A stretch of 64,000 nt of DNA from assembly GCF_056746865.1 (NCBI RefSeq), contig NZ_CM163382.1; one strand, given 5' to 3'. The position numbers and the translations under genes are program-made. Shown one piece after another: positions 9,401-11,084 of this stretch. Numbering within the stretch: the stretch's first letter is position 1; the number at the start of each line of letters is the position of its first letter. The notes below the pieces were generated by a model that saw only the letters and a list, made by a program, of their open reading frames with translations, made no database searches and was not told where the DNA came from.

Positions 9401-9625
9401 GGAAATAAAATTGTTTCCAATAGACATTTTTAACATGTTGTTTTTCTAAGTGTTATAAGGTAGGTATAAAATGGGATGGAGCCTCTGCTTCTGGCATGTG
9501 TCGGTCAGAATGACTCATGATGTGGTCTGCTATTATTGACATCCTCACTGCCCTAAAGGATGGGGATTTCGGTAATGCTGCCAACTTACTGATTTAGTGT
9601 ATGATGGTGATTTTAAGGTGCTTGC

Positions 9626-9901
9626 GTGGCTTCCATTTCCATCAGATGTCCTTCCTGCTCCGCTACTGAAGGCGTGGTGCGTAACGGCAAAAGCACTGCC
9701 GGACATCAGCGCTATCTCTGCTCTCCTTGCCGTAAAACATGGCAACTACAGTTCACTTACACCGCCTCTCAGCCCGGTAAGCACCAGAAAATCATTGATA
9801 TGGCCATGAATGGCGTCGGATGTCGCGCCAGTGCACGCATTATGGGCGTTGGCCTCAACACGGTTTTACGTCACTTAAAAAACTCAGGCCGCAGTCGGTA
9901 A
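9626..9901 (+). CDS. insA: IS1 InsA
   Basis: 91 aa, GTG start, zinc-finger/HTH InsA sequence. Confidence 0.85.
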
Positions 9902-10323
9902 CCTCGCGCATACAACCGGGCAGTGATGTGATTGTCTGCGCTGAAATGGACGAACAGTGGGGCTACGTCGGTGCTAAATCACGTCAGCGCTGGCTGTTTT
10001 ACGCGTATGACAGGATACGGAGGACGGTTGTGGCGCACGTCTTCGGTGAACGCACTCTGGCCACACTGGAGCGTCTTCTGAGCCTGCTGTCGGCCTTTGA
10101 GGTCGTGGTATAGATGACGGATGGCTGGCCGCTGTATGAATCACGCCTGAAGGGAAAGCTGCACGTTATCAGCAAGCGTTACACTCAGCGCATTGAGCGA
10201 CATAATCTGAATCTGAGACAACATCTGGCAAGGCTGGGACGGAAGTTACTGTCGTTCTCAAAATCGGTGGAGTTGCATGACAAGGTCATCGGGCATTATC
10301 TGAACATAAAACACTATCAGTAA
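9820..10323 (+). pseudogene. insB: IS1 insB with premature stop
   Basis: insB frame interrupted by TAG at 10111..10113 (track ORFs 9820..10113 and 10114..10323); consistent with TGG to TAG in a ...VVIWMTDGW context. Confidence 0.7.
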
Positions 10324-11084
10324 GTTGGAGTCATTACCTCCTCCCGAACTCAAAGCTATCATACAGATAATTACTGGTTAACCCTATATAGGGCATTTTA
10401 AAGTGTTGTGATCTTACCCAGCAATAGTGGACACGCGGCTAAGTGAGTAAACTCTCAGTCAGAGGTGACTCACAAGACAAAACAGTTTCAACCAGTAAAA
10501 AAACGTAAACACCATTCGCATGAATTTCGTAGTTAAGATCTGAAGCTTGCAGAATGCATCGGTGTTACTGCCGGAGTCCGTGAACTTAGTCTGCATGAAT
10601 CACCACAGCTTTACATCTGTCGCAGTAAACAGCAAAATCAGCAAACTTACTTAATTATATCGAGTGCGATTACAATCGCTGGCGATGGTACAGTTGGTGT
10701 GGCGGTCTCAGTCCGGAACAATTTGAAAATCAGAATCTCACTTAAAACGGCATCCATTTTACAAAAGATGGCCGTCTGTGTATTTGTAATGAATACCTTC
10801 TACATGTTTAGAGTGCATAATCCACGACAAGGCGATATCCTAAAAATTAGCTAGCAGGCAACTTTGATGGCATAGATAATGTTTTTAGTAAAAAAGAGTT
10901 GACTGAATATAATACAGCCTCTTCCTACATAAGAAGGAATGTGCTCACAAAAAAAAACCATTAGTCTGCTTCCTGTTCTTACAATAATCAGTATTATGTA
11001 TTTTATTTATATAGCAAAATATGCTTGTTACACCTGTCATAATTAGGCATGGTAAAATTATTGACTGAACCCTGGGGGAGAAAG

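Follow-up and report, generated by a model that had tools for sequence, protein, structure and literature searches.

IS1 transposase is regarded as strongly cis-acting. The IS1 copies of Escherichia coli K-12 include IS1F, which is the type 4 IS1 of Umeda and Ohtsubo. The GenBank entry for IS1F of K-12 is X52538, and among 47,877 Addgene plasmids no more than five were seen to carry the element (PMC8867978). The insA gene of IS1F (b4294) is transcribed in MG1655 (PMC6462304). The mobility of IS1F has been addressed in two studies of K-12 BW25113, both using a sequence identical to that of the element described here (PMC12428005, PMC12903888). A BW25113 strain keeping only IS1B, IS1C, IS1D, and IS1F gave no IS1 insertions into bgl or nfsB (PMC12428005). 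With InsAB′ over-expressed in trans, non-consensus IS1 copies were observed to move, and IS1F—the most often mobilised of the four—accounted for 44% of 48 sequenced insertions (PMC12903888). Thus, both the native immobility and the trans-mobilisation of IS1F have been shown in K-12. The possible causes of immobility given in these 2025 studies include "multiple nucleotide substitutions", with the amber codon considered here going unmentioned (PMC12428005, PMC12903888).

A complete IS1 of 768 bp is present in the window, that is, the whole 64,000-nt stretch of DNA analysed here. The limits given to it by an earlier reading made from the letters alone (the sequence-only reading) are correct, with a terminal inverted repeat at each end (Table 1). 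The element is identical at 768 of 768 nucleotides, the TAG codon included, to IS1F of K-12 MG1655 (NC_000913.3, 4518472..4519239, annotated as "insertion sequence:IS1F"), and the full 768 bp are also 100% identical to IS1F in many independent genomes. Comparison with IS1A of K-12, in contrast, showed 73 substitutions in 768 positions and no gaps (90.5% identity). Window positions 1..10338 are collinear with K-12 through the right end of IS1F, at 99.97% identity and in the same orientation, and the element lies beside fecI/ykiE in a KpLE2-type island, as expected of this isoform. The features of the IS1 family are likewise present, namely a length of about 768 bp, imperfect inverted repeats of about 23 bp beginning with GGT, and overlapping insA and insB′ frames joined by a −1 frameshift at an A6C motif. 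The window element is IS1F, a divergent IS1 isoform beside the ferric-citrate (fec) genes of E. coli.

Table 1. Features of the IS1F element and its left neighbour, in window coordinates.
Feature	Position	Strand	Evidence or remark
ykiE small ORF, directly left of IS1F; conserved left junction	9471..9539	+	ORF and K-12 annotation
Complete IS1F element	9571..10338	+	768-bp identity to NC_000913.3 4518472..4519239
Left terminal inverted repeat (IRL), GGTAATGCTGCCAACTTACTGAT	9571..9593	+	23 nt; differs from IS1A IRL at position 4 (G to A)
insA, InsA repressor, 91 aa, GTG start, intact	9626..9901	+	ORF; equals K-12 insA7 (b4294)
5′ part of insB′ frame, to premature stop, 97 aa, ends ...EVVV	9820..10113	+	ORF list
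A6C (AAAAAAC) programmed −1 frameshift site, intact	9877..9883	+	letters read directly
Amber codon TAG in place of Trp163 (TGG)	10111..10113	+	G to A at IS nt 542
3′ part of insB′ frame, 69 codons, MTDGW...HYQ, open but severed	10114..10323	+	ORF list; DDE_Tnp_IS1 profile positions 63–131
Right terminal inverted repeat (IRR)	10316..10338	+	3 mismatches to IRL over 23 nt (87% complementary)

Over its 23 nt, IRR differs from that of IS1A by one substitution (A to G at IS nt 750), located at the third base of the final sense codon before the TAA stop, and no difference from IS1A is found around the A6C motif (IS nt 294..344). No other IS1 copy that could act as a helper was found in the 64,000-nt window. 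In related genomes, a 20-aa "hypothetical protein" (WP_113705808.1) is called by PGAP at the equivalent of window positions 10334..10396 on the minus strand. The 3′ end of this ORF reaches 5 bp into the IRR of IS1F, and the ORF is probably an annotation artefact made by the junction.

In the window, the letters around the stop are GTC GTG GTA TAG ATG ACG GAT GGC TGG, and a gap-free alignment places TGG (Trp, in the context VVIWMTDGW) at the same codon, 163, of K-12 IS1A. The sequence-only reading had described a TAG in the insB frame, at a codon that normally encodes Trp, splitting the frame into two pieces. This description holds throughout, with the two pieces matching both the ORF list and the limits of K-12 insB7. 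The substitution at IS nt 542 (TGG to TAG) converts Trp163 of InsAB′ to a stop, so that the InsAB′ frame, uninterrupted in an autonomous element, is closed at codon 163, and the post-frameshift product would correspond to InsAB′ residues 1–162. The window IS1F is, nevertheless, a defective member of the IS1 family and not a non-member.

The lesion is also part of existing annotations. K-12 insB7 (b4576) is annotated as a pseudogene at 4518721..4519224, limits that coincide with window positions 9820..10323 after coordinate conversion, and insA7 (b4294) is annotated as a CDS. In other strains, the PGAP label is [quoted passage not shown]. A literature search for insB7/b4576 returned nothing relevant. 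In 2,801 E. coli records, the top-scoring hit is the unaltered 69-mer with TAG, which also occurs in 29 plasmid records; these counts, together with the identity to K-12, show that the TAG is neither an artefact of sequencing or assembly nor a new mutation of this strain alone. The TAG is the reference state of IS1F, already known, and not a new lesion. The sequence-only reading had set against its own interpretation the case of a reference IS1 isoform carrying the same codon. Taken literally, this is what was found, since IS1F has TAG, and the lesion is thus the standard allele at the locus rather than private to the window copy. Function is not rescued thereby, however, as the reference itself is defective. 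Hence, the earlier observation is correct and its interpretation is supported, both being already known. With respect to the age of the lesion, the codon differences between IS1A and IS1F comprise 45 synonymous and 18 non-synonymous changes (dN/dS = 0.09). Purifying selection therefore acted on IS1F while it diverged as a working element, and the stop is a late addition.

The consequence of the stop for the transposase was assessed by a Pfam scan of a conceptually repaired 232-aa InsAB′. All three domains of the IS1 family were recovered over their cut-offs, namely Zn_ribbon_InsA at residues 1–36 (E-value 9e-19), HTH_Tnp_IS1 at residues 43–86 (2e-26), and DDE_Tnp_IS1 at residues 102–232 (2e-73); in InsA, the first two both score well over their cut-offs. 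The stop cuts DDE_Tnp_IS1 at profile position 62 of 131, with 70 of the 131 positions lost, and the 162-aa product retains the DNA-binding parts and the first 61 positions of the catalytic domain. Presumably, the first Asp of the D-D-E triad is thereby parted from the second Asp, which would lie in MTDGW, and from the Glu.

Taken together, IS1F is very probably a full-length but non-autonomous IS—a reference isoform with an amber codon at Trp163, movable only by InsAB′ supplied in trans. In the proposed mechanism, a single G-to-A change at IS nt 542 places the amber codon at Trp163 of the frameshift-fusion InsAB′. Translation following the −1 frameshift would end after 162 residues, with the zinc ribbon and helix-turn-helix kept, and the DDE catalytic domain, of 131 residues, would be short of its last 70. 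The elements needed in cis are intact, namely the two inverted repeats, the promoter region, insA, and the A6C motif for slippage. The element would still make the InsA repressor, which is probably functional, and nicking and movement would proceed only via InsAB′ from other IS1 copies. The proposal in the sequence-only reading that this IS1 copy makes no functional InsAB′ is supported by the position of the stop inside DDE_Tnp_IS1, the pseudogene status of insB7, and the absence of insertions in BW25113 (PMC12428005), and its proposal of mobility only in trans is supported by the movement of the identical K-12 IS1F under trans InsAB′ (PMC12903888). The amber codon is thus a sufficient explanation for the native immobility of IS1F, the cause of which was left open in the two BW25113 studies (PMC12428005, PMC12903888).

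The left junction between ykiE and IS1 was found in 2,597 of 5,426 complete E. coli genomes (~48%). In about half of E. coli, IS1F thus has a fixed place, with ykiE/fecI on one side and the remainder of a KpLE2-type island on the other. TAG is carried by 14 of the 15 fec-linked copies examined and TGG by one, a sample obtained from coordinate comparison of match lists and direct inspection. A scan of one genome per species with a TAG-bearing 38-mer was uninformative as to cross-species spread, its sole match being K-12 contamination. The matching 547-bp contig (NZ_JPMI01000182.1), from the assembly of Archangium violaceum Cb vi76, consists of IS1F nt 373–768 followed by the K-12-specific right junction GACCATGTTTAT, and is E. 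coli K-12 DNA contaminating a myxobacterial assembly. The IS1F–GACCATG junction, by which this contamination was exposed, is a compact marker of K-12 DNA.

The TGG version of the 69-mer has an exact match in 2,321 E. coli records. Intact IS1F-type relatives, among them the IS1 of Shigella virulence plasmids, a copy at an O157 locus, and the fec-linked copy of strain 203740, are 99.3–99.9% identical to the window copy; codon 163 is TGG in these, and their InsAB′ has all 232 aa. In one such copy (L011), nt 542, 677, and 703 are the sole differences from the window element, and the full 232-aa InsAB′ is encoded. Copies of the IS1F type on Shigella plasmids have five differences from the window element and are intact, and one of them, on a Shigella dysenteriae plasmid, has a perfect 9-bp target-site duplication (TSD), which would be expected had it inserted autonomously not long ago. 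The element IS1X2, also intact, is a mosaic of an IS1A-type left part and an IS1F-type right part (the insB half).

At the fec locus itself, the TGG copy belongs to strain 203740 (NZ_CP025913.1; L022, 1916..2683). This IS1F occupies the same ykiE/fec site as the window copy, with the same flanks, differs from it only by G542, and is annotated as intact. Its TGG is either a reversion, a gene conversion from another IS1, or a surviving ancestral allele; the genome contains 40 or more IS1 copies. A second IS1F-type copy in this strain, TAG-bearing, lies 45 kb off, between an mdtM-adjacent gene fragment and brnT.

A different nonsense mutation was observed in an IS1F-type copy on the chromosome of O157:H7 strain PV15-279 (L004, 691..1458), which is at a locus other than fec and has TGG at codon 163. 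Its own stop arises from GAA to TAA at IS nt 382, in the context AEMD-stop-QW, whereas L011 and L012 have intact copies at that locus. IS1F-type elements have thus been hit by nonsense mutations at least twice, independently.

At the fec site, TAG occurs on four haplotypes differing at nt 156, 210, 677, and 703, and the same combinations at these positions are found in TGG copies elsewhere. Mosaic copies include a TAG copy with an IS1A-type left end (L024, pS65EC) and IS1X2-type elements (L005 and L006) that are of the IS1A type on the left and of the IS1F type on the right. Together, the shuffled haplotypes and the mosaics point to frequent recombination or gene conversion among IS1 copies. 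Ordering the TAG relative to S208L (nt 677) was abandoned, as TAG and TGG are each found with both T677 and C677.

Among the alternatives to a neutrally decayed, helper-dependent element, the one that survives best—still an unlikely one—is that IS1F is a domesticated source of repressor, with InsA or the DNA-binding truncated InsAB′ dampening IS1 and the stop being under selection. The persistence of TAG in 14 of 15 fec-linked copies despite the shuffling at nt 156/210/677/703 is in keeping with this idea, as is an intact and transcribed insA (PMC6462304), but hitch-hiking with the fec island predicts the same pattern, and strain 203740 has TGG at the locus with no obvious consequence. The variable sites are, moreover, too few for a selection test. 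Such retention of a repressor source, if it occurs, is compatible with the main explanation.

A leaky or suppressed stop, with read-through of the UAG by miscoding or by an amber suppressor yielding a conditionally autonomous element, is more improbable still. The amber suppressor supE44 is present in many K-12 cloning hosts, and 3′ of the TAG the frame runs without interruption to its usual stop and is still recognised by the DDE_Tnp_IS1 profile. Furthermore, IS1F was found inserted in a few Addgene plasmids from laboratory hosts (PMC8867978), but trans-mobilisation explains these insertions equally well. Full-length InsAB′ would require a rare read-through in addition to a rare −1 frameshift, and the strain with only IS1B, IS1C, IS1D, and IS1F gave no IS1 insertions (PMC12428005). 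Finally, a split transposase, in which a 69-aa C-terminal peptide begun independently at the ATG at 10114 joins the 162-aa product of the frameshift to form an active enzyme, is scarcely credible: although an ATG directly follows the stop, with GAGG 11 nt upstream of it, and both pieces contain recognisable domain halves, the Met164 ATG is also present in IS1A and hence no new adaptation, the gene is treated as a pseudogene by PGAP and the K-12 curators, and IS1F is natively immobile in K-12 (PMC12428005).

TAG-bearing IS1F-type copies were found in eight non-fec flank contexts, one chromosomal and seven on plasmids, which include the second chromosomal site of strain 203740, IncK2/Z, IncF, and IncY plasmids, two ST131 plasmids, and an mcr-10 plasmid of Enterobacter roggenkampii. 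These copies are mostly without target duplications. One full-length TAG copy on the ST131 plasmid pAPHA_2019 (NZ_CP051610.1; L028, 991..1758), however, has a perfect 8-bp TSD, GAAAATCC, and is inserted inside tnpA/tnpB of an IS66-family element. When the empty site was rejoined by removing the IS1 and one repeat (300 bp), a database search returned 100% matches to uninterrupted tnpA/tnpB in thousands of records. Simple insertion of a copy bearing TAG has thus occurred in nature in at least one case. The same copy shares the rare T322 variant, as well as T677, with one fec-linked allele, which is more in line with transposition of the complete defective element than with the inserted copy having gained the stop afterwards. 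Both TAG and TGG are found on several of the 156/210/677/703 haplotypes, however, and for some TAG copies at non-fec loci the stop could therefore have come from gene conversion instead of from movement in the defective state.

No 8- or 9-bp TSD was found around the window IS1F, the left flank GGGGATTTC and the right flank TCCTCCCGA providing no bracketing direct repeat, and the insertion history of this copy is therefore unreadable from its flanks. The missing TSD is compatible with one end having been rearranged later and does not speak against an IS1; even the majority arrangement is therefore probably not the original insertion state. With regard to the right end, 2,070 genomes have the window-type junction and 357 have that of K-12. 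K-12 is without window positions 10339..41263 (30,925 bp) and resumes at window position 41264. Its IRR adjoins the final 58 bp of a gene for a GRP-family sugar transporter, just before yjhU; in the window, this ORF occupies 40317..41321, with the distal breakpoint 58 bp before its stop. Among the sequences missing from K-12 are IS fragments, a phytase-like esterase gene, an IS66 element, a CP4-like island with Ag43, mtnK, mtnA, and most of the GRP-family sugar transporter gene.

A deletion beginning exactly at an IS end is a classic product of IS1 intramolecular transposition, and the 30.9-kb gap of K-12 looks like an IS1-mediated adjacent deletion. Since the K-12 allele is the window allele, TAG included, this deletion arose on an already defective copy. 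In strain 720632 (NZ_CP025842.1), the right end of the fec-linked TAG copy adjoins the interior of fimH, with gntP and uxuA next. This arrangement would represent a larger nested deletion from the right end of IS1F, and would abolish the type 1 fimbrial adhesin. We infer that both the K-12 and the fimH deletions were made by transposase supplied in trans.

Beyond the immobility of the element itself, it has been considered whether TAG-bearing IS1F-type elements form a full-length non-autonomous lineage that propagates naturally on transposase from intact co-resident IS1, having spread to eight or more further sites, both chromosomal and on plasmids, of E. coli and Enterobacter, with the ends also producing nested deletions at the fec locus (30.9 kb in K-12, and a larger one into fimH). 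We give this wider proposal an even chance of being right. Natural propagation in trans, if true, would be notable because of the strongly cis-acting character ascribed to IS1 transposase. In addition, TAG and TGG at one locus constitute a natural one-base allele pair for cis versus trans action of InsAB′. The practical weight of the lesion itself is small, as reference IS1F has the same stop and the gene is listed as a pseudogene in existing annotation. The additions made here are modest, namely the TSD-flanked TAG insertion, the multi-locus spread of the amber codon, the intact allele of strain 203740 that differs by one base, and the 30.9-kb deletion anchored at IS1F.

Further comparisons place the window element among known systems. 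The IS1F of K-12 agrees with it at every one of the 768 nt, the TAG among them, and in the left neighbour (ykiE/fecI) and orientation, and differs at the right flank only. IS1A and IS1E, the "consensus" IS1 elements of K-12, share with IS1F the length, 23-bp inverted repeats, insA, the A6C frameshift, and the insB′ frame, but IS1A is separated from IS1F by 73 substitutions and 18 amino-acid changes, including the loss of Trp163 to the stop in IS1F, and IS1A and IS1E transpose autonomously whereas IS1F does not (PMC12428005). Like the trans-mobilised non-autonomous elements of the mini-IS1 or MITE-like kind, IS1F has functional ends and depends on a helper (PMC12903888). Unlike them, it is of full length and encodes InsA and a nearly complete transposase frame, its defect being a single-base change instead of an internal deletion.
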